This document shows, piece by piece, positions 14,699-63,477 of a stretch of DNA of 64,000 nt (positions are counted from its first letter, which is position 1; every line of letters starts with the position of its first letter). Below the pieces are notes generated by a model. It was given only the letters and a program-made list of their open reading frames with translations. It was not told the DNA's origin and ran no database searches. Source of the DNA: Candidatus Margulisiibacteriota bacterium (GTDB lineage: Bacteria > Margulisbacteria > WOR-1 > O2-12-FULL-45-9 > XYB2-FULL-48-7). The translations under genes and the position numbers were made by a program. The stretch is from assembly GCA_041658645.1 (NCBI GenBank), contig JBAZZV010000004.1:112552-176551 (forward strand). The letters are read 5' to 3'.

Positions 14699-14699
14699 C

Positions 14700-14734
14700 A
14701 ACATCCAACTTCAAACATCAAACTTCAAAAACAA
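14700..14734. repeat. Heptamer array AACATCC AACTTCA AACATCA AACTTCA AAAACAA
   Basis: It fills the spacer between the two GH57 genes. It shares the 17-mer AACATCCAACTTCAAAC with the reverse complement of 61945..61961. Confidence 0.85.
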
Positions 14735-14752
14735 GGAGTTCGATTATTTAAA

Positions 14753-16909: not shown

Positions 16910-16911
16910 GC

Positions 16912-17946: not shown

Positions 17947-17964
17947 CATGGTCAGGTAAACTGT

Positions 17965-18948: not shown

Positions 18949-18954
18949 CCCGGC

Positions 18955-46783: not shown

Positions 46784-46800
46784 CGGCGGTAGGGTATTCG

Positions 46801-46855
46801 CAGCCCTCACCCTAGACGAGTTGAGCTTGTGCCCCCTCTCCCAGAGGGAGAGGGG
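46801..46855. repeat. Left half of nested-palindrome element (arm CAGCCCTCACCC + hairpin CCCCTCTCCC/GGGAGAGGGG)
   Basis: It matches the left halves of 29490..29650 and 32306..32427. It is followed 8 nt later by double-hairpin copy 2. Confidence 0.85.
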
Positions 46856-46863
46856 TAAAAAAA

Positions 46864-46917
46864 GTAGCGGCGGTCTTTAGACCGCCATTTGGATGGCGAC
46901 CTGAAGGTCGCCGCTAC
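46864..46917. repeat. Double-hairpin GTAG...CTAC palindromic element, copy 2
   Basis: Sequence is GTAGCGGCGGTCTTTAGACCGCCATTTGGATGGCGACCTGAAGGTCGCCGCTAC. It is near-identical to 609..661 and in the same orientation. Confidence 0.9.
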
Positions 46918-46969
46918 ATTTCGGAACCGATCGTTGCAAGGTGAATAAAGGCCGCCATTTAGGAGCAGC

Positions 46970-47431
46970 ATGAAAAGACCAAGTTGGGACGACTATTTCC
47001 TCAAGATCACGGCTGACGTGGCCGAGCGGGCGACCTGCGTTAAGCGGCAGGTCGGCGCGATCATTGTTAAGGACCACCGGATACTCTCTTCCGGTTATAA
47101 CGGCGCCCCCAAAGGTTTTGACCATTGCACGGATGAGACCTGCATCCGCAAGCAGATGAACGTCCCTTCCGGCCAGCGGCACGAGCTCTGCCGCGGCCTG
47201 CACGCCGAACAGAACGCGATCATCCAGGCCGCCTGGCACGGCGTCAAGATCGAGGGGGGGACTCTCTATTGCAACTATCAGCCGTGCGTCATCTGTGTTA
47301 AAATGATGATCAACGCCGGGATCGTACGGGTCGTCTATGCCGGCGGTTATCCCGACGAGTTGGCCCAAGAAATGCTCAAAGCTTCGGACATGGAGGTTGT
47401 GAAATATGAGAGTAGGTTATCTCGGTCCTGA
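46970..47431 (+). CDS. dCMP deaminase (ComEB-type)
   Basis: 153 aa with the zinc motifs HAEQNAI and PCVICVKMMINAGI. Confidence 0.9.
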   Translation: MKRPSWDDYFLKITADVAERATCVKRQVGAIIVKDHRILSSGYNGAPKGFDHCTDETCIRKQMNVPSGQRHELCRGLHAEQNAIIQAAWHGVKIEGGTLYCNYQPCVICVKMMINAGIVRVVYAGGYPDELAQEMLKASDMEVVKYESRLSRS

Positions 47432-48269
47432 AGGGACTTTTTCCGAAGAAGCGGGGAAGGTCTATCTCCGCCGCTTAGAGGGGAAGACCGAACTCTTTCC
47501 TTTTAGTACTATCCACAGCCTGTTGCTGGCCGCGCAGCACGGCAAGGTAGTTGAAGCCGTTGCCCCGATCGAGAACTCGATAGAAGGGACTATCTCCGCT
47601 GTGACCGATATGCTGGCCAAAGAGGTCTCGCTGGTCATCAGACAGGAATTGGTCCTGCCGGTCTACCATTACCTGATCGCCCAGAAGGGAGTCAAGCTGA
47701 ACCAGGTCACCGATGTGATCTCTAACCCGCCCGCTCTTGACCAATGCAAAGATTTTATCCGCCGCCAGCTTCCCCACGCTAAACTCCATCTCTCCTACAG
47801 CACGGCTGATGCCGTTAAACAGGTCGCTTTTTCTCTGGGGGAGAGGGTCATCTCGCATGGCAAGGTCAAGGGGAGTGTCTTCGCGGCGATCGGGACCGCG
47901 GCCTCGGCGAGGCTTTACGGCTTGAGCGTGGTGGCCAGAAAGATCAATGCCCATGATAATCAGACCCGTTTTATCGTCCTGGCCAAAAAAGACCATCCGC
48001 GGACCGGCCGGGATAAGACCTCAATAGTATTTTCCATTGCCGCGGACCGGCCGGGCGGTCTGCATGATGTTTTGAGCGAATTTGCCATCCGTGACATCAA
48101 CCTGACCAAGATCGAATCGCGCCCGTCAAAACGGGCGTTAGGTGACTACTATTTCTTTGTCGATATGCAGGGGCACCGCGAGGACAAGGTCATTGCCGAC
48201 GCCCTGCGCGAGATCAAGCGCAAGGCCTCTTTCCTCCGGCTGCTCGGCTCCTACCCGAGGGCGAAGTAA
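47406..48269 (+). CDS. pheA: Prephenate dehydratase (PDT + ACT domains, no chorismate mutase domain)
   Basis: 287 aa with YLGPEGTFSEEA, NQTRFIVL and the ESRPS motif IESRPSK. Confidence 0.9.
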   Translation: MRVGYLGPEGTFSEEAGKVYLRRLEGKTELFPFSTIHSLLLAAQHGKVVEAVAPIENSIEGTISAVTDMLAKEVSLVIRQELVLPVYHYLIAQKGVKLNQVTDVISNPPALDQCKDFIRRQLPHAKLHLSYSTADAVKQVAFSLGERVISHGKVKGSVFAAIGTAASARLYGLSVVARKINAHDNQTRFIVLAKKDHPRTGRDKTSIVFSIAADRPGGLHDVLSEFAIRDINLTKIESRPSKRALGDYYFFVDMQGHREDKVIADALREIKRKASFLRLLGSYPRAK

Positions 48270-48270
48270 C

Positions 48271-48513
48271 ATGGCGGAAGAGCGATCAGGTCTGCTGGAA
48301 GGGATGCTGGTCGGCGGTTTGCTTGGGCTGGCGGTGGGGGTCTTGTTCGCCCCGGCGGCCGGCGAGAAGAGCCGGGCGTTCCTGAAGGCGAAACTGGAAG
48401 AGGCCGGCCTGGAAGGGCTGGTCGATAAATTCTCGGAAGCACTGACGGCCGGCCAGGCGGAAGTCGACCGGGCCTTGCAAGAAGACGAGATGACGGAAGG
48501 GGAGGGAGTTTAA
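48271..48513 (+). CDS. YtxH-domain small membrane-associated protein
   Basis: I trimmed track ORF 48142 to ATG 48271. Pattern is GLLGLAVGVLFAPAAGEKSRAFLKAKLEE. Confidence 0.75.
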   Translation: MAEERSGLLEGMLVGGLLGLAVGVLFAPAAGEKSRAFLKAKLEEAGLEGLVDKFSEALTAGQAEVDRALQEDEMTEGEGV

Positions 48514-48514
48514 T

Positions 48515-48790
48515 ATGCAGTTGTATCTGATCAATATCCTGTTCTTCTGCCTGATCCTGTTGGTACTGGCCTTGACCGTGGGGGCCGTGCAGCTGGTCAT
48601 TATCCTGGTCGATGTTCGGAAGACCTCGAGCGAGATCAGCAGCAAAGTCCGGATGGTCGCTTCGCTCTTTGATATCGTGACGATGGTCGTCGGTGGGCTG
48701 GGTTCGGCTAAGCGGAAAATGAACGATTCTTCCCTGGCCGCTTTTGCCGCCGGGCTAAAGAAGTCTTTCGAAGTCCTGTTCAAAAAATAA
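48515..48790 (+). CDS. DUF948-like single-pass membrane protein
   Basis: 91 aa with an N-terminal TM helix followed by a helical region, flanked by two YtxH genes. Confidence 0.65.
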   Translation: MQLYLINILFFCLILLVLALTVGAVQLVIILVDVRKTSSEISSKVRMVASLFDIVTMVVGGLGSAKRKMNDSSLAAFAAGLKKSFEVLFKK

Positions 48791-48803
48791 GGGAGGAAAT
48801 GAA

Positions 48804-48986
48804 ATGGGAAAAATGAGCGGTTGGTTAAAGACCCTGACTTTCGGTGGTTTGCTCGGTTTGGTTGCCGGGTTGTTGTTCGCCCCGACCAAAGGTGAAGAGA
48901 CCCGTGAAAAACTGCAGGGCGCCCTGGCCAAAGGTAAAGAGAAGTTCCAGGAGATCAAGGGCGATTTAACGAAGAAGGACAACTAA
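48804..48986 (+). CDS. YtxH-domain small protein
   Basis: 60 aa with GGLLGLVAGLLFAPTKGEETREKLQ. Confidence 0.75.
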   Translation: MGKMSGWLKTLTFGGLLGLVAGLLFAPTKGEETREKLQGALAKGKEKFQEIKGDLTKKDN

Positions 48987-48997
48987 CTCTTTTTGTT

Positions 48998-50620
48998 ATG
49001 GCTCAACAGCGACTGGCGCAACTTGTTCGGGCGGCGCTGGCAGCCCTCGGCGTACCAGAGCCGCTCCCCTTTAAGGTCGAGAGCTCCCCGCGCAAGGAGT
49101 ACGGCGATTATGCCGTCAACGCGGCGATCATCGGCGCGAAGAAGTTTTCCCGCAATCCTCTGGAGCTGGCTGCCGAGCTGTCGGCCAAGATCAAGGAATT
49201 GGATGCCGGCCAGCTCATCGCCAAACTTGATATAGTCAAACCCGGCTTTATCAATATTTTCCTCAAAGACGCTTACCTGCAACAAAATCTTTGCCAGATT
49301 ATTGAACAGGACCATAACTATGGGATGGGAAAGCGACTGACGATTGACGACGGACGACCGATGACTGTTTTGCTCGAGTTTGTTTCAGCCAACCCAACAG
49401 GACCCCTCCACGTCGGCCACGGCCGCTGGGCGGTGGTCGGCGACGTGATCGCCCGGCTCCTGCGGGCCGATGGCTGGGCGGTCAGTACCGAATTCTACGT
49501 CAATAATGTCGGCAATCAGGTCGAGAAACTCTGGCTCTCCGTCCAGGCGGCCCGGGCCGGCCAGCCTGTTCCGGAGGGGGGCTATGGCGGAGTTTATATC
49601 AAAGACGTCGAGGGGGAGACCAAGGCAGAAGCCCTGGCTTCGATCCTGGCCGGGCAGAAGCAGGCGCTGGCCCAGGTCGGGGTAAGTTTTGATAATTTCT
49701 TTTTTGAAAATACATTACATGATGCTGGCAAGGTCCGCGGAGCGGTCAAACAGTTAGAGGTGATGGGGAAGACGGTCATCGAGGGTGGGGCGGTCTGGTT
49801 TAAATCGCAGGAGATGGGGGACGACAAGAACCGGGTCCTGATCAAGGAAGACGGACTGTCGACCTATTTTGCCGCCGACATCGCTTATCATCTCGATAAG
49901 TTCCAGCGCGGTTTCCACCGGCTGATCAACATCTGGGGAGCCGACCACCACGGTTACGTCAAACGGTTGAAGGCGGCGCTCCAGGCGCTTGGCCTGCCGG
50001 TCGAGAACTTCGATATTATCATCGGCCAGCTGGTCACGCTCTACCGGGGGGAGGAGCCGGTCAGGATGTCGAAGCGGACCGGCGAAATGGTCACCCTCCA
50101 GGAAGTGCTCGATGAGGTCGGCTCGGACGCGACCCGGTTCTTCTTCGCGGCGACCGACGTTAACTCCCATCTTGATTTTGACCTAGAACTGGCCAAGAAA
50201 AAATCGAACGATAATCCGGTCTACTACGTCCAGTACGCGCACGCGAGGATTTGCAGTATCCTGAAGAAATCCGCCTCACCCCCTTCCGTCCCCCTCTCCA
50301 TCAAAGATGGAGAGGGGGAAACTCCGACGATAGTCGGAGAGGGGGTGAGGATTGATCTATCCGCATTGAAGCATCCGGCTGAGCGAGAACTAATGCTTAA
50401 GCTGTTAACCTGGCCAGAGATGGTTAGCCTGGCCGCGCGACTGCGCCAGCCGCACCGGATCACCGAATATGGCAAGGAGCTGGCGATCGTTTTTCACCAC
50501 TTTTACGAGCAGTGCCGCGTGCTGGGTGATCCGTCGAGAATAGTGCTGGTAAATGCTTCTCGAATCACCCTCCGGAATGTGTTAGAATTACTGGGAATAA
50601 CGGCCCCGGAATCAATGTAG
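48998..50620 (+). CDS. argS: Arginine--tRNA ligase
   Basis: 540 aa with SANPTGPLHVGHGR (HIGH), the MSKR-type KMSKS motif VRMSKRTG, and a DALR anticodon-binding domain. Confidence 0.96.
   Translation: MAQQRLAQLVRAALAALGVPEPLPFKVESSPRKEYGDYAVNAAIIGAKKFSRNPLELAAELSAKIKELDAGQLIAKLDIVKPGFINIFLKDAYLQQNLCQIIEQDHNYGMGKRLTIDDGRPMTVLLEFVSANPTGPLHVGHGRWAVVGDVIARLLRADGWAVSTEFYVNNVGNQVEKLWLSVQAARAGQPVPEGGYGGVYIKDVEGETKAEALASILAGQKQALAQVGVSFDNFFFENTLHDAGKVRGAVKQLEVMGKTVIEGGAVWFKSQEMGDDKNRVLIKEDGLSTYFAADIAYHLDKFQRGFHRLINIWGADHHGYVKRLKAALQALGLPVENFDIIIGQLVTLYRGEEPVRMSKRTGEMVTLQEVLDEVGSDATRFFFAATDVNSHLDFDLELAKKKSNDNPVYYVQYAHARICSILKKSASPPSVPLSIKDGEGETPTIVGEGVRIDLSALKHPAERELMLKLLTWPEMVSLAARLRQPHRITEYGKELAIVFHHFYEQCRVLGDPSRIVLVNASRITLRNVLELLGITAPESM
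50274..50350. repeat. Nested-palindrome element inserted in frame in argS
   Basis: It has arms CCTCACCCCC / GGGGGTGAGG and inner hairpins CCCCCTCTCCAT/ATGGAGAGGGGG and CTCCGAC/GTCGGAG. It encodes ASPPSVPLSIKDGEGETPTIVGEGVR. Confidence 0.85.
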
Positions 50621-50640
50621 CGGAGCGGAGGGTCCCGGCA

Positions 50641-51555
50641 ATGAAATACGCGTTTTTTAAAGATAAAATAGTCCCGTTTAGCGAAGCCAAGATCGGTATC
50701 ATGACCCACGCTTTTAACTACGGGACCGGCGTCTTCGAAGGGATCCGCGGCTACTGGAACGCCGAAAAGAGCCAGATGTATATCGTCAAGCTGCGGGAGC
50801 ATTATGAGCGGCTGGAACGATCGACGAAACTGGCGCTGAAAAGCACGCTTAAATACTCCCTCTCGGAACTGGAAAACATCACCGTCGAACTGGCGAGAAA
50901 AAACGACTATCGCGAGGACATTTATCTCCGCCCGATCTATTATAAATCACAGGAAAAGATCGGTCTGGGGCTGATCGGCGTAGAAGAGGATTTCTGCCTC
51001 TTTGTTTCGCCCTTCGGCGCTTATCTCGACATAACCAAGGGGATCAGGGTCTGCGTTTCCTCCTGGTGGCGGATCTCCGAAAAGTCGGCGCCGCAGGGGG
51101 CCAAGATCACCGGCAGTTACTTTAATTCTTCGCTGGCCAAGGCGGAAGCGCTGGAAAAGGGTTTTGACGAAGCGATCCTCCTGTCGCACGAAAAGACCGT
51201 GGCCGAGGGGTCGGGCGAAAACCTATTTATGGTTAAGAATGGACAACTGGTTACCCCGCCGCTTTCGGAAACGATCCTCCCCGGCATTACTCGGGTTTGT
51301 GTCATGACCCTGGCGGCCAAGGAGCTGGGAATCAAGACGGTAGAACGGCAGGTGAAGCAGGCTGAACTGTACACGGCCGATGAGCTCTTTTTCTGCGGCA
51401 CCGGCGCCCAGATCTCGCCGATCGTTGATGTCGACGGCAAAAAGATCGGCGACGGTAAGCCCGGTTCGATCACGCGGAAATTACAGAAAATTTATTTTGC
51501 CGCGGCGCGCGGCGATAATCCCAAATACGCCGATTGGGTTACGCCGGTTTATTAG
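50641..51555 (+). CDS. ilvE: Branched-chain amino acid aminotransferase (fold type IV)
   Basis: 304 aa with GVFEGIRGY, a Lys-region pattern containing KITGSYFNS, EGSGENLF and PGITR. Confidence 0.9.
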   Translation: MKYAFFKDKIVPFSEAKIGIMTHAFNYGTGVFEGIRGYWNAEKSQMYIVKLREHYERLERSTKLALKSTLKYSLSELENITVELARKNDYREDIYLRPIYYKSQEKIGLGLIGVEEDFCLFVSPFGAYLDITKGIRVCVSSWWRISEKSAPQGAKITGSYFNSSLAKAEALEKGFDEAILLSHEKTVAEGSGENLFMVKNGQLVTPPLSETILPGITRVCVMTLAAKELGIKTVERQVKQAELYTADELFFCGTGAQISPIVDVDGKKIGDGKPGSITRKLQKIYFAAARGDNPKYADWVTPVY

Positions 51556-51595
51556 TTACCGGCCGTTTTCTTAGGTCGTGGGCAAAGATTTCTTT

Positions 51596-54500
51596 ATGAG
51601 AAGCATAATAATTTTTGGGCTTTTGATCTTTTCTCTTTTTGGACCGGCCTATGCAGCTGCCGATTATTATGTCGACCCCGCCGGTTCAAATTCTAATGAC
51701 GGCTTGACCGCCGGCACGGCCTGGAAAAACCTGACCTATGCGGCGACCATGTCGGCGGTCGGCGACACCATTCACGCGGCGGCCGGGACGTATAATGCGG
51801 CGCTCGGTGAAGTTTTTCCGATAACTGTAGCCAACCGCACAATAACCTCAAGTGCCTCGAACCTGGCGACGATCGATGCTGGTAGTTCAGATAATAATAT
51901 GCTCAACGTCGGGGCAAATACCACACTAGAGGGCCTGACGATCAAGAAAACCTCGACTAACAACTACGCGGTGAATGTGACGGGTGCCAACGTCCAATTA
52001 TTGACCAGTATCGTTTCGGGAGGAGCCAGTTCCCTCTATTTAACCAGCGGTGCCGATTACTGTCTGGTCCAGGGTAATGCCATCAATAATTGCGGTAGTA
52101 ATGTTTACTATCCGATTTATGCGGCCAGCGGAGCTGATTATTTGATCTTCAGGAACAATACTATAACTAATTCATATGGCAATAGTTCTGCGACCGGTAT
52201 TTACCTGATAGGAATTTCATATGCCACGATCGAAGGCAATACGATAACGGCTGACAACGGTATTTACATGTCTGGTACCTGTACCGGCTTTGATATTAAG
52301 ACCAATAAATTGATCGGCTACAGCAATAATACCAATGCTTACGCTGGTATAATAACCAGGGGGAACGGGGCAATAACCTCGAACGAGGTGCGGGGCTATC
52401 TGAACACAGGTGTCGGCAGCATCTATATCACCGGCGGTAATGATCCGGTCACGATCAGCAAGAATACGATCGTCGATAACGCTGTCGGTATCCGTAATGT
52501 TTCTAGCGGGGCGGTAACGGTCAAGAATAATATCATCGCCGGCCGGACAAGACCGGGGAAATATTATGATAACAGCGTCGGCCTTTACAATAACACTTCA
52601 AACGGTTCGATCAACAGCTCGTACAACCAATTATTCAATGTCGAAACGGGTTATTACGTGGCTTATGGGACGATCAACGGGCGGACGAATGATGCGACGG
52701 CCTGCCCGCGCTTTGCCAACCCGGACGCGAACAATTATTTACTTTGCACCGACTCGCCGTGTTTGAACAGCGCCGATCCGGCCGACGGGGGTAACCGGGG
52801 CGCCTACGGTGGCGCCGCGGCCAGTTCGGGGATAGTCGCCGTCTCCTACGTCAGCAACAGCGGGAATGATTCGACCGGGGACGGCAGTCTGGGCAGTCCC
52901 TGGAAGACGATCGCCAAGGCGCTGGGCTCGACCGAAGGGACGGTGTACGTGAGGGGCGGGACGTATAACGCGGCGGCGGGCGAGACCTTTCCGTTGACTT
53001 TGGAAGTGAGCCAGGGCTTGAAGCAGTACCTGACGGAGGCGGCGACGATCGATTCGGCGGCCGCGACTGTCTCGACAGTCATGCTGGGGACGGGCGCGAC
53101 GCTGGACGGCATCGCGATCAATAACACTGCGAGCGGGGATTATTATGATGTAAGCATACTCGGGCCTTATTGTCAGGTCTTGAACAGCACTCTGACCAAA
53201 ACCAACGGCTCCGCGATTTATATAAACGGATCGGCCTCCCAACTGTCGGACGGCTCCGACAACTGCCTGGTGCAGGGGAACACGATCACCTACGGCGGGT
53301 GGTACTATCCGATCTATGCGGCCGGCGGGGCTGATTATTTGATCTTCAAGAACAATACGATAACAAACTCATACGCCGGCGTTTATTCGAACGGCATTTA
53401 CTTGGCCGGTAACAGCAATTCTTATACCACGATCGAGAGCAATACGATAATGGCTGATGTCGGTATTGGCATGGCCTACACCTGCAGTAATTTTGATATT
53501 AAGACTAATAAATTGATCGGTTACAGCAGCAATACCAATGCCGCCACGGGTATCCAAGTTAATGGGACCGGGACAATCATTTCGAACGAAGTGCGGGGCT
53601 ATCTGAACACCGGTTACGGGGGCATCCATTTTACCGGCGGCGGGCCGATCACGATCAGCAAGAACACGATCGTCAATAACGCGGTAGGGGTCCGCAACGT
53701 TTCCAACGGGGTGGCGACGGTCAAGAATAATATCATCGCCGGCCGGACAAGGCCGGGGAAATATTATGATAACAGCGTCGGTATTCTTAATGCCGCGTCC
53801 GGCATGACCAACAGTTCGTACAACCAGTTGTACAATGTTGAAATGGCTTATTATATTGTTTCTACCGGCACGATCAACGGGCGGACGAACGACGCGACGG
53901 CCTGCCCGCGCTTTGTCAACCCGGACGCGAACAATTATTTACTTTGCACCGACTCGCCGTGTTTGAACAGCGCCGATCCGGCCGACGGGGGTAACCGGGG
54001 CGCCTACGGTGGCGCCGCGGCCAGTTCGGGGATAGTCGCCGCATCCTACGTCAGCAACAGCGGGAATGATTCGACCGGCGACGGCAGTCTGGGCAGTCCC
54101 TGGAAGACGATCTTCAAAGCGCTGGGCTCGACCGAAGGGACGGTGTACGTGAGGGGCGGGACGTACAACGCGGCGGCAGGAGAGACCTTCCCGTTGACTT
54201 TGGAAGTAAGCAAGGGATTGAGGCGGTACCTGACGGAGGTAGTGACGATCGATTCGGCGGCCGCGGCTGTGACGACGGTCATGCTGGGGACGGGCGCGAC
54301 GCTGGACGGCATCGCGATCAATAACACTGCGAGCGGGGATTATTATGATGTAAGCATACTTGGGCCTTATTGTCAGGTCTTGAACAGCACTCTGACCAAA
54401 ACCAACGGCTCCGCGATTTATATAAACGGATCGGTCTACCAACTGTCGGACGGCCCCGACAACTGTCTGGTCCAGGGGAACACGATCACCTACGGCGGGT

Positions 54501-57500
54501 GGTACTATCCGATCTACGCGGTCGGCGGGGCCGATTATTTGATCTTCAGGAACAATACGATAACGAATTCATACGCCGGCGTTTATTCGAACGGCATTTA
54601 CTTAGTCGGCAACAGCAGTTCTTACGTCACGATCGAAGGCAATACGATAACGGCTGATGTTGGTATTGGCATGGCCAACACCTGCAGTAATTTTGATATT
54701 AAGACCAATAAATTGATCGGTTACAGCAGCAATACCAATGCCGCCGCAGGTGTCCAAGCTTACGGGAGCGGGACAATAACCTCGAACGAAGTGCGGGGCT
54801 ATTTGAACACCGGTTACGGCGGCATCTATATGGTCAGCGGCAATCCGATCATCAAGAAGAACACGATCGTCAAAAATGTTATTGGTATACGAATTGTCGG
54901 CGGCACGGCCACGAGTGAAAATAATATAATAATAAACAAACCGACCGGCGGGGCTCCCGATGCCGGCAGTTACGGCATCAAGCGGGTTGGCGGCACCATT
55001 ACGTCATTATACGACGATGTCTGGAATAATGAGACCAGTTGGTCGCCGGCGACAATTTCGGGGGTTGGGACCATCTCGGCGGATGCCGTGTTCGTTGACC
55101 CGACAAATAATGATTTTCATCTTCAAGGCAGCTCTCCCTGCATCGATGCCGGAGATCCAACGTCTCCGCTCGATCCCGACGGCAGCCGCGCCGACATGGG
55201 AGCTTACTCTTATTACCAAACCGATTTTACCGGGCCGGCAGTCGAAGTTACCTCACCGGTCGGCGGGGAAAAGTGGCAAGGTGGATCGTCTCAAAATATA
55301 ACCTGGACCCTTTCTGATTCGAGCGGCATTAAGGCAAACTCCGTTAATATTTATTATTCGACCGATAGCGGGGCAACTTATCCGAACACGATCGCGACCG
55401 GCGTCGCTACCAATGCGGCCTACCCCTGGAATCCGGTGCCGAGTTTGGACTCGTCGATCGTCAGGGTCAGGGTCACGGCCCAGGACAATTCGGCTGCCCA
55501 TAGTACAGGAACAGGAGAAAGCGCGGCGAATTTCACGATCGACTCAACGGCGCCGAGCGCGCCGACGCTGTCAACCCCGGCGAATAACAGTTATGCTACA
55601 AGCCCCACGCCAACTTTTACCTGGCAGGCGGCGACTGATAGCGGCTCGGGAGTGGGCAGCTATGAAATAACGATCGATTCGACGGTGACGACGCAGGGGG
55701 CGACAACGACTTACACGCCCGGGACGGTACTTTCGGAAGGCGCTCATGCCTGGAAGGTGAGAGCCAAAGATGCGGTTGGCAATTGGGGCGCATTTTCGTC
55801 CACCTGGATCGTGACGGTCGATGTAACCGCGCCGAGCGCTCCGACACTGTCGACCCCGGCGAATAACAGTTACGCTACAAGCACTACGCCGACTTTTACC
55901 TGGCAGGCGGCGACGGACAGCGGTTCAGGTGTTGGCAGTTACGAAATAACGATCGATACGACGGTGGCGACCCAGGGAGTGACAACGACTTATACGCCCG
56001 GGACGGCGCTGTCGGAAGCCGCCCATACCTGGAAGGTGAGAGCGAAGGACGTAGCCGGCAACTGGGGCGCCTTTTCGTCCACCTGGACGGTGACGGTCGA
56101 TGCGACCGCGCCGAGTGCGCCGACACTTGTAACCCCGGCCAATGGCGCTTCTGTCGCGACACCTACGCCGACCCTGACCTGGGAAGCGGCAACGGATAGC
56201 GGTTCAGGCATAGGGAGTTATGAAGTTACGATCGACACGACAGCGGCAACTCAAGGGGCGACAACGAGTTACACTACTCCTATTTTGACCGAAGCCGCGC
56301 ATACCTGGAAGGTGAGAGCGAAGGACATAGCTGGCAACTGGGGGGGCTTTTCTTCCACTTTCGGTTTGACTGTCGACCTGACCGGGCCGGGGATCACGGG
56401 CATCACATTAAAGGACATAACAAGTGAAAGCACGCGTTATACCAATTTGCCGATAATTACGGTCGAAGCCGCCGGGACCAGCGGCTCGCCGGCGCAGATG
56501 CGCCTGGCGGAAAACACCGGCTTTTCGACCAATGATTCCGGCTGGCTGGCCTATGTTAATCCAACGCGATATTCTCTGACGGCCGGAGATGGCGGCAAAA
56601 CCGTTTACTACAAATTGCGGGACAATGTTTCAAATGAAAGTGTAGTGGTGACAGCCGGTATCACCCTGGATTCAACGGGCCCGGGCGCGCCGGTCTTAGT
56701 TACGCCGGCAAATGGTGACACGACAATCGAAACGACGCCAACTTACAGCTGGAGTGCGGCGACCGACGCGTTAAGCGGAGTTATCAGTTATGAGATCAAG
56801 GTTGATACGACTGCGACTACCCTTGGGGCGGTAACAAGCTATGTCCAGCCGACGGCACTGTCGCTGGCCGCTCATACATGGCAGGTGAAGGCGAAAGACG
56901 GTGCGGGCAACTGGGGCGATTACAGCGGTTCGTGGAGCTTTACTGTTGTTACTGCAACCACCACAACCACTACTACAACTACCACTACGACAACGGCCAC
57001 CACAACGACGACAACTGTTGCGGGAGCAACCACGACTACCACTACCACAACAACTACGGTTGCCGACACGACTGCGCCCACAGTCGTGGTCAATATCGAG
57101 GGTGTTGCAGTCAAGGATGGCGATCATATCGGCAAACAGCCGACTTTTGAAATCACGCTTAATGATAATCTGGCGCTGGATACTTCTTCGATCAAGGTCT
57201 GGCTTGACGGGAACATTGTTTCGTCGGCTAAAGCGACGGCGGCTACGTCCGTTACCAGCACAAAGCTGCAGATCAAACCGACGACCGAGCTAGCGGACGG
57301 CTCCCACACTTTGAGGATCGAGACCAAAGACATGGCCGGCAATCAAGTTGTTAAGGCATTTACCTTGCTGGTCTCTTATGAGAGCGCGGCCAAGGTGCTG
57401 GGGAATGTCACGGTCTCGACTCCGGTCTTTTCGCCGGCCAAGGATCAAACAATGTCAATGGCTTTTAATCTGACCAAGGATGTGAACACGATGTTTTTGA

Positions 57501-57703
57501 TGGTCGGGCCGGGCGGTGAATCGGTCTGGACGCGCCGGTTCACGGCCGGAGCCAACGGCGCCAGGGCCGGTTATAACGAAATAAAATTCAACGGCGTTTC
57601 GGATATAAGCGGCACCCAACTCGCCAACGGCATCTATGTTTATAAGATAGTGGCGGAGGGCAAAGTGATCGGCTCCGGCCATCTTGTCGTGTTCAATCAA
57701 TAA
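51596..57703 (+). CDS. Giant secreted surface protein: 3 right-handed beta-helix modules, 4 Ig/FN3-like repeats, a poly-Thr linker, Ig-like domains and a C-terminal FlgD-Ig/T9SS-CTD-like domain
   Basis: The ATG at 51596 gives signal peptide [20 protein letters not shown] (the track start GTG 51578 is less likely). NNTITNSY and GNTITAD-type parallel beta-helix repeats recur, along with 93-aa repeats containing [24 protein letters not shown]. The C terminus is [25 protein letters not shown]. Confidence 0.9.
   Translation: [2035 protein letters not shown]
52500..54900. repeat. Tandem repeat with exact 1,200-nt period inside the giant gene
   Basis: Lines 52741-52800 and 53941-54000 are 60/60 identical. 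Neighbouring 60-nt lines are 56-58/60 identical. A more diverged copy extends upstream to about 51650. Confidence 0.9.
55545..56385. repeat. Three tandem 279-nt (93-aa) Ig/FN3-like coding repeats; a fourth diverged copy lies at about 56680..56950
   Basis: GCCGAG(C/T)GC anchors are at 55552, 55831 and 56110. Confidence 0.85.
56951..57058. repeat. Poly-threonine coding low-complexity linker
   Basis: ACN-codon run encoding [37 protein letters not shown]. Confidence 0.9.
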
Positions 57704-57705
57704 AC

Positions 57706-60657
57706 ATGGCCTTGCCTTTAAAACGCGCATTATTACTTATTATTTTTGTCACGGCGTTTAGCTGCGCCGCCTCGGCCCAAACCAGGGTGGCCACCGACCC
57801 GTCGCGCATCGGGGTCGGGGCCCGCATTCTCGGTATGGGGAAAAGTTTTATCGGTTTGTCGGATGACGTGTCCGGCATGTTCATCACCCCGGCTTCGTTG
57901 TCCTCGATCAAGAATTTTCAGGCGACCACCATGTCCGGCCGCTTCATCAACGAATTTGATTATATGAACCTGGCGGCAGCTGCGCCGACAAAGTTCGGGA
58001 ATATCGGTTTGGGTCTGGCGGGCAGCAACATCAGCTTCCTGGGTTTTACCTCAACGACCGAAGTCCTCGACGGCACCAGGCTCATTCCCTCAACTACCGA
58101 AGGTTCGACGTATGGCTTCAACAACCGGGTCTATTTGCTTTCCTGGTCGGCCGGTTTGGGGGGGCTGCTGGAAAAATTGTCGCTGGGCGCCAGCTATAAA
58201 TTCTTTATGGTCGATCTTTCCGGCCCGGGAATAGTCGGCGGCCGGGCGAAGGGCAATGAATTGGACTTTGGCCTCAATTTTAAGCCGAGCGCTTCGGTCA
58301 GTACCGGACTGGTCGTCCAGAACGCTTTGCCCGCTGCCTGGGGCGGCAAAATTAGGTACGATAACGGCAACGAAGAAACCTTTCCCTCGATCTTAAAAGT
58401 AGGCTTGAGCTTAAAACTCCTGGGCGAAGACGGCTTCCGTAAAATAGGGAACAACGAGTTGTCCTTTAATCTGGATGAAGATATTTCCCCTCTCCGGCCG
58501 TCTCTGCCTGCGCTGACGCACACGGGCCTTGAGTGGTCGCCATTGCCGGTCATCGATTTAAGGGTTGGGATTGACCAGGAAACGGTGGGAACCGGCACCG
58601 GCAGCCAGTTGGAAGCTTCGAACAATTTGACCGCCGGAGTGGGTCTTTATTTTGGCGAATTTCGCTTTGATTACGCCTATCATCAATACTCGCAGCTGTC
58701 GGAAAACACCACCAATTATTTTTCCATCACCTACGGCGCGGCCAGAAAAAAAACTAAGCCGGGGCCACCCGTGAAAACGGCTTCATTTAAGCTTTCACCT
58801 GCCGACAAGAGCATTATGTATGGGGAGCTGGTCACGATCGAAGGCCGGGTGCTTAACAGGGAAATTAAGTCGGTAAAGGTGAACGGTCTCGAAGCGGCAC
58901 TGATAAACGATCAGTTTAAAATTGAATTCCCGCTGATTATGGGTAAGAATTTTTATCGGATTGATGGGTATGACGGCAGAAAAAAGCTTTTCGACAGCCA
59001 GAGGATCAGGCTCCTGCGGCTCAAGGATTTCAAAGATGTTCCGCCGGATTACTGGTCAGGCATTCCGATCGGCGCACTGGCGATGGAAAACATCGTCACC
59101 GGTTATCCCGACGGGACTTTCCAGCCGGAAGGGAACATCAGCCGTGCGGAGATGTGCTTGCTGTTGATCAAAACGAGGTCTTTAACCGCCGGCAACGAAC
59201 TTAAATTTCCTTTCAAGGATGTAGCGGCCGGGCACTGGGCGGCGCGGTCTATCGCACAGGCGGTTGATCTGGGTATCGTCAAAGGTTATCCGGATGGCAG
59301 GTTCAAGCCGAATGGCTTGATCAGCCGCGCGGAGGGAGTGGCCATGCTGTCCAGATTCGGCGGCTTACCAGCGGCCAAAGGAGAAAGTTTGCGTTTCACC
59401 GACGTGCCCGGCCGCAGCTGGGCTTATCGGGCGGTGGCGTCCGCGGACGAAGCCGGACTGCTGGGCTATTTGAAAGGGGATTTATTTGAGCCGGATAAAA
59501 AATTGACCCGTTCGGAAGCAGCCGCAATGCTGGCCGGGATCGCTCCGTTCTCTTTGCTGCTGGCCGACATTCTGGATTGGGAAAAGGAAACTTTCCGTCA
59601 ATTTTATCTGCCGGAGGCAATGAAACCGGCGGCAGTCAGGACCGAAGAAGTTAAACCTAAAATAATAACGCCCGAAGTAATTAAGCCGGTAGAAATTGGG
59701 CCGGAAACAATTAAAGCTGAAGCAATAAGGCCGGTTGAAGCTAAACCAACAGCAATTAGACCCGAAGCAATTAAAGCGGCAAAAATGGAGGAAGTTACGC
59801 CGGCAGAAGTCGAGAAGAAAGAGACCCGGAAATTTAAAAAGCCTTCTTTTTCAACCAGACCGATGGATAAAACTATTGTCTATAATTCCATCGTTACTTT
59901 TGAGGGGCAGGTTATCAACCCGGAAGTAACCAGGGTGCAAATTAATAATATCAAGATTGTTTTGTCGGGTAAAAAATATAAAGTCAGCCTGCTGCTGAAA
60001 CCGGGGAAAAATTCTTTTTCCATTAACGGCTATAACGCAAAAGGCAGACTGGTCGGCAGGCAAAGGATCAGGGTTTTGTCGCTTAAGGACTTTAGCGATG
60101 TCGTGCCGGGCCACCCGGCCAAAATGCGGATCGCGCTGGTAGCAACACTGGGAATAATGAGCGGTTTTGCTGACGGCACTTTTAAGCCCGGCTTAGATAT
60201 CAGACGGGCTGACTATTTAATTAAATTGCTGTCGCTCGGCAAAATACCTGCAGCCGGGTCGTCGGAACTGCCTTTTATCGATATAAAACCAACTGATCAG
60301 GCCGCCCCGTATATAAAAGCCGGTTATCAGCGGAAAATTATCACCGGCTATCCGGACAGGACTTTTCGGCCGAAGCGGCCCACCAGCCGCGCAGAAAGCG
60401 TCGTCATGTTGCTTAGGTTTACCCGGCAGGAATTGCCTCAGGTAAAAAACAAACCTTATCCAGATGCTCCGGTCGGGCATTGGGCGGTTCGGGAGATAAC
60501 AGCGGCCAAACAAACCGGAATGTTAAAATATGTGCTGATCAACTTTTATCCCAATCAGGCGATTAGCCGAGCAAATACGGCGGTCATGCTGTCCAATTTA
60601 GGGCCGATAAAGGACAGGATCGATGATCTCTTGGACTGGGAAAATGGTTATAATTGA
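57706..60657 (+). CDS. PorV/PorQ-like outer-membrane beta-barrel fused to two [Ig-like + 3x SLH] blocks
   Basis: 983 aa with signal peptide ...SCAASA. The N-terminal signature is GARILGMGKSFIGLSDDVSGMFITPASL, and the barrel-like region ends at NYFSITYGA. There are six SLH-like units, for example FKDVPPDYWSGIPIGALAMENIVTGYPDGTFQPEGNISRAEMCLLLIK. Confidence 0.85.
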   Translation: MALPLKRALLLIIFVTAFSCAASAQTRVATDPSRIGVGARILGMGKSFIGLSDDVSGMFITPASLSSIKNFQATTMSGRFINEFDYMNLAAAAPTKFGNIGLGLAGSNISFLGFTSTTEVLDGTRLIPSTTEGSTYGFNNRVYLLSWSAGLGGLLEKLSLGASYKFFMVDLSGPGIVGGRAKGNELDFGLNFKPSASVSTGLVVQNALPAAWGGKIRYDNGNEETFPSILKVGLSLKLLGEDGFRKIGNNELSFNLDEDISPLRPSLPALTHTGLEWSPLPVIDLRVGIDQETVGTGTGSQLEASNNLTAGVGLYFGEFRFDYAYHQYSQLSENTTNYFSITYGAARKKTKPGPPVKTASFKLSPADKSIMYGELVTIEGRVLNREIKSVKVNGLEAALINDQFKIEFPLIMGKNFYRIDGYDGRKKLFDSQRIRLLRLKDFKDVPPDYWSGIPIGALAMENIVTGYPDGTFQPEGNISRAEMCLLLIKTRSLTAGNELKFPFKDVAAGHWAARSIAQAVDLGIVKGYPDGRFKPNGLISRAEGVAMLSRFGGLPAAKGESLRFTDVPGRSWAYRAVASADEAGLLGYLKGDLFEPDKKLTRSEAAAMLAGIAPFSLLLADILDWEKETFRQFYLPEAMKPAAVRTEEVKPKIITPEVIKPVEIGPETIKAEAIRPVEAKPTAIRPEAIKAAKMEEVTPAEVEKKETRKFKKPSFSTRPMDKTIVYNSIVTFEGQVINPEVTRVQINNIKIVLSGKKYKVSLLLKPGKNSFSINGYNAKGRLVGRQRIRVLSLKDFSDVVPGHPAKMRIALVATLGIMSGFADGTFKPGLDIRRADYLIKLLSLGKIPAAGSSELPFIDIKPTDQAAPYIKAGYQRKIITGYPDRTFRPKRPTSRAESVVMLLRFTRQELPQVKNKPYPDAPVGHWAVREITAAKQTGMLKYVLINFYPNQAISRANTAVMLSNLGPIKDRIDDLLDWENGYN
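59641..59785. repeat. 15-nt periodic coding repeat (PE[AVT]IK pentapeptides)
   Basis: It encodes PKIITPEVIKPVEIGPETIKAEAIRPVEAKPTAIRPEAIKAAK between the two SLH blocks. Confidence 0.8.
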
Positions 60658-60683
60658 TTATGCTATAATATGTACCAGCTATT

Positions 60684-61058
60684 ATGATCAAAGGGATCGG
60701 CATAGATATTATCGAGATCGACCGGATCAGGTCGGCGGTCGAGACTTACGGCGAAAAATTCCTGGCGCGGGTCTTTACCGCCCGGGAGATCAGCTATTGC
60801 TGGCGCAGTAAAGCCTACCGGATCCCGGAACTGGCGGTCCGTTTTGCCGCTAAAGAAGCTTATTCCAAAGCGCTGGGGACAGGGATCACCGGGTTTGGCC
60901 GGCGGAACAGCGGGGTCAGCTGGCAGGACATCGAGATCGTCAATAATGTTCAGGGGAAACCGTTGATCTCCTTTAAAGGGATGCTGGCCGACAAAGCTCA
61001 AGTCAGCCTGTCGCACAGCCGCGATTACGCGGTCGCTACCGTATATGTTGAAGAGTGA
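60684..61058 (+). CDS. acpS: Holo-[acyl-carrier-protein] synthase
   Basis: 124 aa with MIKGIGIDIIEIDRI, FAAKEAYSKALG and SLSHSRDYAVA. Confidence 0.93.
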   Translation: MIKGIGIDIIEIDRIRSAVETYGEKFLARVFTAREISYCWRSKAYRIPELAVRFAAKEAYSKALGTGITGFGRRNSGVSWQDIEIVNNVQGKPLISFKGMLADKAQVSLSHSRDYAVATVYVEE

Positions 61059-61884
61059 AATAAAAAAAGTCCTGCCTAAAAGACACCCGGGGACCCACAA
61101 GGGTGATTACGGCCGCGTCCTGATCGTGGCCGGTTCAAAAGGGATGCTGGGCGCGGGAGTTTTGGCCGCGCGCGCCGCTTTGCGGGCCGGCGCAGGAGTC
61201 GTCTATTGGGCCGTGCCGGACGATCTGGTCAACTTAGCCAACACCATCACGCCGGAAATCATTGTCATCCAGCATAAACAGATCACAGAAATAAAAGTTG
61301 ATGTTGTCGCTATCGGTCCAGGTTTGGGAACATCGGAGCAAACCAAAAAACTTTTGTCGTTAGTCGTTAGCCTGCCTGCCGGCAAGGCAGGTCGTCAGTC
61401 GTTAGTTGTTATTGACGCTGATGCCTTGAACGTTATTGCCAAGCACCCCCAACTTTTGCCCAAGGACAAGAACAAGGACAAGAATATATTGACCCCCCAC
61501 CCAGGCGAAATGTCCCGTCTCCTTGGACAAAGCGTTGCTTCGATCCAGGCTGACCGCCCGGCTGCGGCTAAATTGGCAGCAGCCAAGTTCAACGCGATCG
61601 TGGTACTCAAGGGAGATAAAACGGTCGTGGCTAACCCGCAGGGGAAGGTTTACTTGAACAACACTGGCAATCCCGGTATGGGGACGGCCGGCTCGGGTGA
61701 CGTTCTAACCGGGCTGATCGCCGGTTTGCTCGGACAAGTCCCGTCCGCTTATGAGGCCGCCCAGATCGGCGTCTATCTGCACGGGCTGGCGGGCGACCTG
61801 GCGGCTAAAGAGAAAGGCGAGGTCAGCTTGATCGCTTCCGACCTTGTCGACTACGTTCCGGCTGCTGTATTACGTAACTCGTAA
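61045..61884 (+). CDS. ADP-dependent NAD(P)H-hydrate dehydratase (YjeF C-terminal type)
   Basis: 279 aa with HKGDYGRVLIVAGS, IDADAL, LTPHPGE and GNPGMGTAGSGDVLTG. It carries two low-complexity inserts. Confidence 0.9.
   Translation: MLKSEIKKVLPKRHPGTHKGDYGRVLIVAGSKGMLGAGVLAARAALRAGAGVVYWAVPDDLVNLANTITPEIIVIQHKQITEIKVDVVAIGPGLGTSEQTKKLLSLVVSLPAGKAGRQSLVVIDADALNVIAKHPQLLPKDKNKDKNILTPHPGEMSRLLGQSVASIQADRPAAAKLAAAKFNAIVVLKGDKTVVANPQGKVYLNNTGNPGMGTAGSGDVLTGLIAGLLGQVPSAYEAAQIGVYLHGLAGDLAAKEKGEVSLIASDLVDYVPAAVLRNS
61356..61411. repeat. Eight-unit phased heptamer array (GTCGTTA family) in frame in the dehydratase gene
   Basis: Units are GTCGTTA GTCGTTA GCCTGCC TGCCGGC AAGGCAG GTCGTCA GTCGTTA GTTGTTA. 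The central three units form the hairpin CCTGCCT/AGGCAGG. Confidence 0.8.
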
Positions 61885-61970
61885 TGCGTAACGTGTAATG
61901 CGTAATTGGTTATTGGAATTTGGATATTGATATTTGTTTTGAGGTTTGAAGTTGGATGTTTGAGGTTGTA
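61873..61970. repeat. Fourteen-unit phased heptamer array filling the nnr-mlaE spacer
   Basis: Units are CGTAACT CGTAATG CGTAACG TGTAATG CGTAATT GGTTATT GGAATTT GGATATT GATATTT GTTTTGA GGTTTGA AGTTGGA TGTTTGA GGTTGTA. It contains the dehydratase TAA stop. Confidence 0.85.
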
Positions 61971-61975
61971 TAAAG

Positions 61976-62755
61976 ATGCCATACAGAAAAGTCACTGAAA
62001 ATATCGGCAATAGAACGCTTCATATCCTGGAGATAGTGGGCGAGATCTCCAGTTTGGCCGGAAAAGTTGTTCGAGATATCTTTCGGGGCAAGGTCAACCT
62101 CAAGCTGACGCTCGAACAGATGGTCAAGGTCGGTTTCGATTCTCTTCCCCTGGCGCTGACCACTTCGGCCTTTGTCGGCATGGTCTTTGCCATGCAAATA
62201 GCGGCAGAATTTTCCAAGTTCGGCGCCGGGAAATTCGTGGGCGGGCTGATGGGGGTCGCGATCTCCCGGGAACTTGGCCCGGCGATTACCGGGATAGTGG
62301 TCGCGGCCCGCGTGGCCGCTTCTATTACCGCGGAGATCGGGACGATGAAGGTGACGGAACAGATCGACGCGATGGAAGCGCTGGGGGTAAGCCCGATCCG
62401 CTACCTGATCATCCCGCGGTTCCTGGCGACCACCCTGATGCTCCCGCTGCTGACCATTCTGACGATCATTACCGCTTTTATCGGCGGTTACTTTGTCTCG
62501 ATCTTCGTCGGCCGGATCAACCCGGTCGAATATATGGAAACGGCCCGCTCGCTCTCCAAATTGTCGGATCTTTACGGGGGATTGGCGAAAACAGCCGTTT
62601 TTGGCATGATCATTTCGATCGTTGCTTGCTACCGGGGACTGAATACCAAGGGCGGAGCCAAGGGGGTAGGCGAGGCGACCACTTCGTCGGTCGTGATAAC
62701 GCTGATCAGCCTCTTTATCGTGAATTACTTTTTGTCGATGTTATTATTTAGATGA
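61976..62755 (+). CDS. mlaE: Mla-type ABC transporter permease
   Basis: 259 aa with the MlaE pattern RELGPAITGIVVAARVAASITAEIGTMKVTEQIDAMEALGV. Confidence 0.9.
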   Translation: MPYRKVTENIGNRTLHILEIVGEISSLAGKVVRDIFRGKVNLKLTLEQMVKVGFDSLPLALTTSAFVGMVFAMQIAAEFSKFGAGKFVGGLMGVAISRELGPAITGIVVAARVAASITAEIGTMKVTEQIDAMEALGVSPIRYLIIPRFLATTLMLPLLTILTIITAFIGGYFVSIFVGRINPVEYMETARSLSKLSDLYGGLAKTAVFGMIISIVACYRGLNTKGGAKGVGEATTSSVVITLISLFIVNYFLSMLLFR

Positions 62756-63477
62756 TCAAATTCAACAAGCTGACCAAATATTTTGATAAAATAAAGGTCA
62801 TTGAAAAGTGCGACCTGCTTATCGAGGACGGCTCTTCCGTGGCGATCATCGGGCCGTCCGGTTGCGGTAAAAGCACTCTCTTGAGGCTGATCATTCGCCT
62901 GACCGAGCCGACCTCCGGCTCGGTCCTGGTTGATGGCCAGGAGGTCGGCCGGCTCGGAGGTGAGGGGCTGATCGAATTGCGCAAGAAGACCGGGATGATC
63001 TTCCAGACCTCGGCCCTTTTTGATTCCATGAACGTCTTTGAGAACGTCGCTTTCGCCCTGCACGAGCATACGAAAAAGAGCGTAACGGAAATCAGGAAGA
63101 TCGTCGCGGAGAAACTTAAAATGGTCGAACTGGAAGGGGTTGGCGACATGATGCCGTCGGAACTTTCGGGCGGGATGCAGCGCCGGGTCTGCATCGCCCG
63201 GGCGCTCGCTTTCGACCCGAAGATCATCCTCTACGATGAGCCGACCACCGGCCTCGACCCGATCACTTCTGTCACCATCGAGAATTTAATGGTAAAATTG
63301 AGCCAGGAGTTGAAGGTGACGTCGATTTTAGTCACCCATGTGCTGCAGACCGTTTATCGGGTGGCGCATAAGGTCTACATGCTCAACAATGGCGAGCTGC
63401 TCGACATCGGGACGCCGGAGCAGGCCAGGAACTCTAAGGATCCGGTCGTGGCTAAATTTATTTCGGGAGGTTTGTAA
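62752..63477 (+). CDS. mlaF: Mla-type ABC transporter ATP-binding protein
   Basis: 241 aa with Walker A GPSGCGKST, signature LSGGMQRR and Walker B ILYDEPT. Confidence 0.92.
   Translation: MIKFNKLTKYFDKIKVIEKCDLLIEDGSSVAIIGPSGCGKSTLLRLIIRLTEPTSGSVLVDGQEVGRLGGEGLIELRKKTGMIFQTSALFDSMNVFENVAFALHEHTKKSVTEIRKIVAEKLKMVELEGVGDMMPSELSGGMQRRVCIARALAFDPKIILYDEPTTGLDPITSVTIENLMVKLSQELKVTSILVTHVLQTVYRVAHKVYMLNNGELLDIGTPEQARNSKDPVVAKFISGGL

Follow-up and report, generated by a model that had tools for sequence, protein, structure and literature searches.

The 64-kb window analysed here, a stretch of contig JBAZZV010000004.1 from a Candidatus Margulisiibacteriota bacterium, encodes a 983-residue protein in which a predicted outer-membrane barrel of the PorV/PorQ superfamily is followed by two blocks, each made of one immunoglobulin (Ig)-like domain and three S-layer homology (SLH) units. 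The first-pass annotation, made from the letters of the DNA, had described this order of a barrel followed by twice Ig-like plus three SLH. The domain architecture was confirmed: the open reading frame (ORF) lies at exactly the coordinates given, and Pfam and AlphaFold2 (AF2) agree with the layout. The same annotation missed a conserved pairing of the barrel gene with genes for cargo proteins that carry a sorting-type C-terminal domain (CTD). This pairing points to a docking role similar to that of PorV in the secretion system of type IX (T9SS). We lean towards the explanation that the protein is a wall-tethered, PorV-like outer-membrane docking barrel for CTD-bearing surface proteins. The pairing of a PorV-like barrel with CTD cargo outside the known range of type IX secretion is the most interesting aspect of the finding, and the family is large and so far undescribed, with the duplicated anchor as a rare variant that is kept by selection.

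The barrel and its CTD-bearing neighbours

The barrel belongs to the PorV/PorQ superfamily with a FadL fold and is no OmpM-type porin. The NCBIfam model PorV_fam (NF033709) matches the window barrel with an E value of 8e-16 and 58.5 bits over profile positions 8-324 of 326, and all of the 66 aligned family members are matched by it as well (best E 5.9e-30). The PorV2, PorQ and PorV equivalog models match 65, 56 and 16 of these members, respectively. Tail-less and coiled-coil relatives (P0182 and P0247) carry the NCBI name 'PorV/PorQ family protein'. The AF2 model built on the 66-sequence alignment has a predicted local distance difference test (pLDDT) score mostly above 90 over residues 40-630. 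Its barrel consists of 14 long strands behind a short helical plug (helices within aa 31-67), so that the membrane barrel claimed by the first-pass annotation for the N-terminal region is predicted at high confidence. The best non-SLH fold matches in Foldseek are the 14-stranded channels FadL, TodX and CymD (E 1e-7 to 1e-8), with template modelling (TM) scores of just 0.44-0.50. PorV of F. johnsoniae (6h3i_F) was the sole non-SLH sequence-profile match in the PDB (E 0.038), and a phmmer search of the barrel against the PDB sequences found nothing. In the hatch segment, D31, R40, G45 and P62 are invariant across the family. The FadL-type NPA motif of the hatch is near-invariant, with N61 in 62 of the 66 members; the window protein has threonine there and reads TPA. 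Compared with its orthologue P0002, the barrel is 93.5% identical and its ratio of non-synonymous to synonymous substitution (dN/dS) is 0.07.

The fold matches and the NPA motif, which is a hallmark of FadL (the FadL deltaNPA structure 2r4o is among the fold matches), bring up a wall-tethered FadL-like channel for hydrophobic molecules or lipids. Such a protein would combine tethering with uptake and might work with the nearby Mla lipid transporter; it would parallel OmpM, which has such a dual role for hydrophilic nutrients. Sub-threshold matches to Toluene_X (PF03349) in some relatives and the presence of mlaE, mlaF and mlaD a few genes downstream in conserved synteny are also consistent with it. 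However, the closest curated family by sequence is PorV/PorQ and not FadL, the window barrel has no Toluene_X match even at E 10, and its hatch carries TPA. The barrel is about 315 aa long against about 420 aa for FadL, its TM scores to these channels are low, and housekeeping genes stand between the barrel gene and mla. The channel would also leave the CTD pairing and the co-variation described below unexplained. We consider it quite improbable.

The gene directly upstream encodes a secreted giant of 2041 aa. It contains three beta-helix/DUF1565 modules, Big_13/OmpL47-type Ig domains, poly-Thr tracts and a C-terminal sorting-type domain. Its stop codon, TAA at 57701-57703, is separated from the ATG of the barrel gene by a 2-nt gap, and promoter and terminator scans around the two genes gave nothing above shuffled expectation. 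Giant-protein genes also precede the orthologues in three other loci (L001, L003 and L004), and in L007 the neighbour is an 825-aa BNR/TIG protein. A C-terminal domain of about 100 aa is common to the window giant and these four neighbours. A small hidden Markov model (HMM) was built from this domain, and all fetched loci were scanned with it. A CTD gene was directly adjacent on the same strand for 29 of the 73 distinct barrel genes (22 upstream and 7 downstream). Counted from the CTD genes, 29 of 42 adjoin a barrel gene, against about 4.6 expected (binomial P about 7e-19). The CTD is always at the extreme C-terminus of its carrier, and the carriers range from 362 to 3327 aa. In the CTD family A4, which holds 34 sequences and is C-terminal in 34 of 34, TIGR04183 (the T9SS type A sorting domain) matches 21 sequences (best E 3.2e-6) and FlgD_ig matches 16 (best E 3.8e-9). 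The PorU and PorZ models match 14 and 7 of the 34, respectively, and the CTD profile matches FlgD structures. A search of the profile against an index of 5.8 billion proteins, made through a word prefilter, returned five fragments only and is uninformative on the distribution of the domain.

The pairwise distances between barrels follow those between the adjacent CTDs (r 0.78, Mantel p 2e-4). The partial correlation of barrel and CTD controlling for the SLH triplet is 0.76, and that of the SLH triplet and CTD controlling for the barrel is –0.06. By these distances, the barrel, and not the rest of the same polypeptide, appears to co-evolve with the CTD of the neighbour. Such co-variation is expected of binding partners, like PorV and the CTDs of type IX secretion, and we infer from this genetic evidence that barrel and CTD may bind physically. 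The cargo-adjacent barrels are found mainly in two clades.

Several arrangements around these genes are worth recording. In two Saganbacteria genomes (L047 624-18316 and L039 5494-18172), an array directly downstream of flhA (FHIPEP) holds one or more CTD-protein genes, two tandem barrel-SLH paralogues and a BNR/TIG CTD protein; a further, conserved CTD protein of about 390 aa is encoded there on the other strand. In L046 (7836-13612), a small CTD-protein gene (about 380 aa) with a barrel-SLH gene behind it occurs twice in succession. The first barrel gene has three SLH units and the second one an Ig-like domain and three SLH units, and the whole looks like a duplicated cargo/anchor cassette. 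In the giant gene of the window, three near-identical repeats of about 400 aa (1.2 kb each) at 51578-55300 each comprise a beta-helix/DUF1565 module and a flanking segment. These repeats also yield duplicated antisense ORFs at 52739-53242 and 53939-54442. The long poly-Thr tracts of the giant lie near aa 1740-1790.

Two putative wall-binding blocks on one chain

Block 1 (aa 361-635) and block 2 (aa 714-980) are 36% identical over 269 aa (E 1e-60), and both peptide strings that had been quoted for the internal duplication are present. Self-BLAST of the protein did not show the duplication, as it returned the trivial match only; it was shown by aligning the two halves. Pfam places a Glucodextran_B (Ig-like) domain at the start of both blocks. 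The first one scores 24.3 bits (E 2.9e-5), just below the 27-bit cut-off, with a model pLDDT of about 96, and the second one scores 27.2 bits. The total score for Pfam SLH (PF00395) is 201 bits. When SLH1-6 were scanned singly, the scores were 53.1, 59.6, 28.4, 34.1, 49.0 and 15.2 bits. The assignment as SLH therefore holds by HMM threshold for five of the six units (cut-off 20.8 bits), but not for the sixth (aa 917-983), though this unit aligns with SLH3 and folds like it in a model with pLDDT 96.

Block 1 superposes on the SLH module of B. anthracis Sap (3pyw) with a TM score of 0.84 and a root-mean-square deviation of 2.3 Å in Foldseek. The low confidence for SLH4-6 in the full-length model reflects a shallow alignment in that part and was resolved by modelling block 2 alone (pLDDT 96.3, predicted TM score 0.89). 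This separate model superposes on Sap 3pyw and on SpaA with TM scores of 0.80 and 0.79, respectively. As modelled, block 2 folds as a competent SLH pseudo-trimer. The SLH motifs are SRAE, SRAE and TRSE in block 1 and RRAD, SRAE and SRAN in block 2. The Arg and Glu residues of the TRAE-type motifs (R480, E543, R602 and E604) are invariant across the family. Three SLH units in one chain would make a self-sufficient pseudo-trimer like those of Sap and SpaA, and with this the proposal of a trimer-independent, multivalent wall anchor of high avidity is a reasonable reading of the models.

The linker between the blocks, modelled with a pLDDT below 50, is rich in Pro, Glu, Lys and Ala. The pentapeptide composition that had been claimed for it is borne out by its periodicity: at lags of 5 and 10, residue identity reaches 0.24 and 0.27, respectively, whereas most other lags give 0.04-0.09. 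The units read TPEVI/KPVEI/GPETI/KAEAI/RPVEA/KPTAI/RPEAI. At the DNA level, Tandem Repeats Finder found no tandem repeat in the linker. The window protein and P0002 are 86% identical overall, with 91.4% in SLH4-6 and 86.6% in SLH1-3, and their linkers differ in length by a 30-aa indel. The dN/dS values of the four periplasmic modules against P0002 are 0.20-0.28, with 0.28 for SLH4-6. These values, together with the conservation, indicate that both blocks are maintained by purifying selection. Decay of block 2 was considered and rejected by its dN/dS of 0.28 and its 91% identity to P0002. A very recent duplication within the gene was rejected too, since the blocks are just 36% identical and block 2 stands apart from block 1 in a rough neighbour-joining tree; this tree is too weak to separate an old duplication from acquisition from a paralogue.

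Table 1. Positions of the barrel gene, its parts and its upstream partner in the window
Feature	Position	Strand	Basis
Upstream partner, 2041-aa secreted giant	51578..57703	+	ORF list; Pfam, NCBIfam; signal peptide read from sequence
CTD of the giant, last 105 aa, FlgD-Ig / T9SS type-A-sorting-like family, ends NGIYVYKIVAEGKVIGSGHLVVFNQ	57386..57700	+	HMM family A4
Gene of the finding, PorV-like barrel then 2 x (Ig + 3 SLH), 983 aa	57706..60657	+	ORF list, domain scans, model
Sec signal peptide, aa 1-24, ...SCAASA/QT	57706..57777	+	Read from sequence; helix 3-22 in model
N-terminal hatch/plug segment, aa 28-67	57787..57906	+	Invariant columns; short helices at 32-67 (model)
14-stranded outer-membrane beta-barrel (predicted), aa 72-343, PorV/PorQ family, FadL fold	57919..58734	+	NCBIfam, AF2, Foldseek
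Ig-like domain 1, aa 360-443, Glucodextran_B-like	58783..59034	+	Pfam; beta-sandwich in model
SLH1-3, aa 444-630, pseudo-trimeric wall-polymer-binding module (predicted)	59035..59595	+	Pfam, Foldseek
Disordered linker, aa 631-713, about 8 pentapeptide units	59596..59844	+	pLDDT, periodicity
Ig-like domain 2, aa 714-796	59845..60093	+	Pfam Glucodextran_B; block-2 model
SLH4-6, aa 797-983, second pseudo-trimeric SLH module (predicted)	60094..60654	+	Pfam, model, Foldseek

A proposed docking mechanism and its competitors

The docking role that we favour would operate as follows. At first, the Sec signal peptide would direct the protein to the periplasm, and residues 72-343 would insert in the outer membrane as a 14-stranded barrel of the PorV/PorQ family. 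An even number of strands puts both termini on one side, conventionally the periplasm, where the SLH units must be to reach the wall; in such a predicted topology, the C-terminal Ig-like and SLH modules would hang into the periplasm. Second, each pseudo-trimer of three SLH units would bind a polymer of the wall, for which a pyruvylated secondary cell-wall polymer on peptidoglycan is the likeliest candidate, and would in this way fix the barrel, together with the outer membrane around it, to the wall. Third, on the surface side, the barrel would act like PorV or a PorP-like type IX anchor. Its partner would be the giant beta-helix protein, whose gene ends 2 nt upstream; the barrel would bind the Ig-like CTD of this giant and hold it at the cell surface, and the mechanical load would be carried by the wall anchor. 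The two Ig-plus-SLH anchors, joined by a flexible linker of about 80 residues, would be two independent wall-binding modules. The doubled anchor would raise avidity and reach, which may suit a cargo of 2041 aa.

The nearest known counterparts of such a barrel are PorV and PorQ, and PorP/SprF-like proteins, of the Bacteroidota T9SS (NF033709; 6H3I chain F). The barrels are homologous, 14-stranded and of FadL fold, and the window barrel gene is likewise paired with proteins that end in an Ig-like type-A sorting or FlgD-Ig CTD. The position of a cargo gene beside a barrel gene also recalls sprB-sprF and the pairs of type-B CTD and PorP-like genes. On the other hand, the window barrel belongs to a Terrabacteria phylum without a known T9SS and falls below the curated family cut-off, and several paralogues of it occur per genome. 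It carries a periplasmic anchor of Ig-like and SLH domains, which no described PorV, PorQ or PorP has. Wall binding in the T9SS is the task of a separate lipoprotein, PorE (PMC7192894).

A number of points weigh against the docking role. The 58.5 bits of the barrel stay below the curated 90-bit cut-off of PorV_fam, and its N-terminal 350 residues have no Pfam match even at E 10. The CTD of the window giant is weak when taken alone (FlgD_ig E 0.006; TIGR04183 E 0.075, 13 bits against a 23-bit cut-off). Mirror-tree correlations such as that between barrel and CTD can be inflated by a shared duplication history, and all of the structural evidence is prediction. More than half of the barrel genes are without a detected CTD neighbour. 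The barrel copies in the mur…pheA-X-argS-ilvE-acpS-yjeF-mlaEFD synteny have none, and there must therefore be a role without cargo as well. Neither the annotated parts of the window nor the ten neighbours tested yielded a translocon, motor or sortase gene of the T9SS, and published surveys place T9SS genes only in the phyla of the Fibrobacteres-Chlorobi-Bacteroidetes (FCB) group. The docking role thus gives no account of how the cargo would cross the outer membrane. Neither csaB nor an OmpM-like or T9SS gene was found in the annotated window regions 737-32304 and 44135-63474; the content of 32.4-44.1 kb is judged only by synteny with mur genes in related loci.

The copies without cargo neighbours bear on a second explanation, a pure tether between outer membrane and wall. 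In it, the barrel would be only the membrane anchor, by a logic like that of OmpA, and the adjacency of CTD genes would reflect co-expression of envelope genes rather than binding. The fusion of the same barrel to LysM, SPOR, SLH or coiled-coil tails, the copies of the core synteny beside dcw and mla envelope genes without a CTD neighbour, and the well conserved SLH trimers all agree with it. However, it is the barrel, unlike the SLH part of the chain, that co-varies with the CTD of the neighbour, and the enrichment of adjacency (P about 7e-19) also speaks against it. The conserved hatch and loops and the barrel dN/dS of 0.07 are more than a passive anchor needs. Besides, a tether of the OmpM class is already present in a related genome. 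We regard the pure tether as unlikely, although less so than the FadL-like channel.

The presence of a PorV-family barrel beside type-A-like CTD cargo, and the match of 16 of the 66 members to the PorV equivalog model, would also fit a PorV that is part of a complete but divergent T9SS, with SprA-, PorKLMN- and PorU-like parts elsewhere in the genome. However, the scans of the annotated window parts and of the neighbours gave no core gene, and the surveys restrict these genes to FCB phyla. The 2-5 paralogues per genome, each with its own cargo, resemble cognate PorP/SprF-type anchors more than a single shuttle. A complete T9SS is the least probable of these explanations and very unlikely. An extension of the docking role can be put forward more tentatively, as a possibility with the balance rather against it. 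Margulisiibacteriota might have a minimal CTD-based sorting and anchoring system, composed of SLH-bolted PorV-like barrels with paralogue-specific, co-encoded cargo and lacking the canonical type IX translocon.

The family, its genomic setting and its meaning

The single-block form with barrel, Ig-like domain and three SLH units is a large, undescribed, phylum-wide family in Candidatus Margulisiibacteriota/Saganbacteria. A word-indexed search gave 338 matches to this layout of about 630 aa. A search with the barrel only gave 2038 representative clusters at E ≤ 1e-3 and 194 at E ≤ 1e-30. In species-representative genomes, 59 loci were found with 2-5 paralogues per genome. Architectures were counted among 260 sequences: the single-block form accounts for 151, a barrel with three SLH units for 34, a barrel without a recognised tail for 47, and a barrel with six or eight SLH units for 4. 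The twofold Ig-plus-SLH form is present in 2 of the 260, the window protein and P0002, and the exact duplication was found in this one further sequence only. In one distant partial protein, P0239, the second block consists of an Ig-like domain and two SLH units. The unusual architecture claimed by the first-pass annotation thus holds for the rare second block; the barrel-first order is the norm for hundreds of Margulisiibacteriota proteins. A rough tree of SLH triplets suggests several independent duplications, and variants with 6-8 SLH units appear to have arisen repeatedly. The group counted as tail-less has in reality LysM (P0228), SPOR (P0254) or Pro/Lys-linker tails, long charged coiled-coil-like tails (P0126, P0130 and P0247), or none. 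That one barrel has been fused repeatedly to wall-binding modules of the periplasm is good comparative evidence that this outer-membrane protein is anchored to the wall.

Two observations on single members are added. The coiled-coil-like tails of P0126, P0130, P0150 and P0247 are 250-320 aa long and rich in Glu, Arg and Lys, with the UniRef label DUF5723. Locus L017 (DATJPS010000048.1), from a metagenome-assembled genome labelled Candidatus Omnitrophota, holds a member 46% identical to the query. It is the sole locus outside Margulisiibacteriota-type labels, and mis-binning, a wrong label or transfer is possible.

The protein had been set against the OmpM, Slp, SlpA and cyanobacterial SLH-porin tethers as having the opposite order. 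These proteins (V. parvula OmpM1, 8BYM; D. radiodurans SlpA, 7ZGX) likewise link a barrel to the wall through SLH in a diderm Terrabacterium, and their SLH units are homologous to those of the window protein. Each chain of OmpM has a single SLH at its N-terminus (residues 40-99 of 435 in 8bym), continues in a coiled-coil stalk and ends in a porin barrel, and OmpM depends on trimerisation. In contrast, the window protein starts with a barrel of PorV/FadL type, has no stalk and carries an Ig-like domain and three SLH units twice in one chain. The PDB profile matches to 8bym and 8bys are limited to the SLH region (query 442-501), and this search gave no OmpM similarity outside it. The reversed order therefore stands, but the barrel is unrelated to that of OmpM/Slp, and the protein is a different one with an SLH tail rather than an inverted OmpM.

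Nor is a barrel-first tether without precedent. OmpA has a barrel followed by a wall-binding domain. Among the Negativicutes, trimeric autotransporter adhesins such as VtaG, which carry a periplasmic SLH at the C-terminus, show the same order of barrel and wall domain and precede this case. Trimeric autotransporters of Terrabacteria have been described with C-terminal periplasmic coiled-coil or SLH extensions, and with OmpA in a fusobacterial genus; the extensions were proposed to resist the shear from a large adhesin. These alternative tails parallel the coiled-coil, SLH, LysM and SPOR tails of the window family. However, in the autotransporters the adhesin and the barrel are one polypeptide, the barrel is a trimer with four strands per chain and each chain has one SLH. 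In the present case, the adhesin-like giant is a CTD protein of its own, and the barrel is monomeric and 14-stranded with three or six SLH units. The modules themselves are closest to the three-SLH modules of Gram-positive S-layer proteins (Sap, 3PYW/6BT4; P. alvei SpaA, 6CWC), on which both blocks superpose with TRAE-type motifs kept. They differ from these in being periplasmic, tandem-duplicated and placed on an integral outer-membrane barrel of a diderm, as predicted here, and in the partly altered motifs of block 2 (RRAD and SRAN).

The published OmpM survey uses an operational definition of OmpM, SLH plus barrel, and for the WOR-1 genome RIFOXYB2_FULL_42_35 it gives OGC24325.1 as the OmpM and OGC24502.1 as the CsaB. 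In the same table, the family member OGC23703.1 is placed only among the SLH proteins; it is our P0034, 47% identical to the window protein. The search for csaB suggested by the first-pass annotation thus finds it in a related WOR-1 genome but not in the annotated parts of the window. As that genome has an OmpM-class tether and CsaB, the window protein is probably not the main tether of the outer membrane.

Some further features of the gene order and of the window were noted. The sequence acpS - yjeF (NAD(P)HX dehydratase) - mlaE - mlaF - mlaD lies downstream of the barrel gene at 60684-63477 and also in L001, L003, L005 and L006. The barrel gene comes after argS-ilvE in the window and in close relatives, and before argS-ilvE in more distant orthologues. 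A glycogen/alpha-glucan cluster at 12521-24397 contains three GH57 enzymes, an 820-aa NTP-transferase/phosphoglucomutase fusion and glycogen synthase. Inside it, a 327-aa protein (17965-18948) combines DUF4912 with a Glucodextran_B Ig-like domain. At 10979-12379, a 466-aa ThyX with two Thy1 stretches is apparently a tandem-fused flavin-dependent thymidylate synthase.

Margulisiibacteriota are a diderm sister lineage of Cyanobacteria. In the literature searched, no paper was found that describes a PorV-SLH fusion or T9SS-like parts in Margulisbacteria. Tethering of the outer membrane in diderm Terrabacteria is currently described as the work of OmpM alone, and the window family is not listed as a tether in the OmpM survey. 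With this family, the SLH-anchored outer-membrane proteins gain a second class, which is phylum-wide and has a different barrel. The natural domain swaps on one barrel (three, six or eight SLH units, LysM, SPOR, coiled coil or none) are useful for studying how a wall anchor is tuned. That a PorV-family barrel is paired with type-A-like CTD cargo beyond the FCB group matters for the origin of type IX secretion, and also for how the cell surface is built in uncultured Margulisbacteria and Saganbacteria. If the minimal system is true, the module of CTD and PorV recognition would be older or more mobile than the Bacteroidota T9SS. In Terrabacteria, the anchor of giant surface proteins or of S-layer-like coats would then be a barrel that reaches from the outer membrane to the wall.

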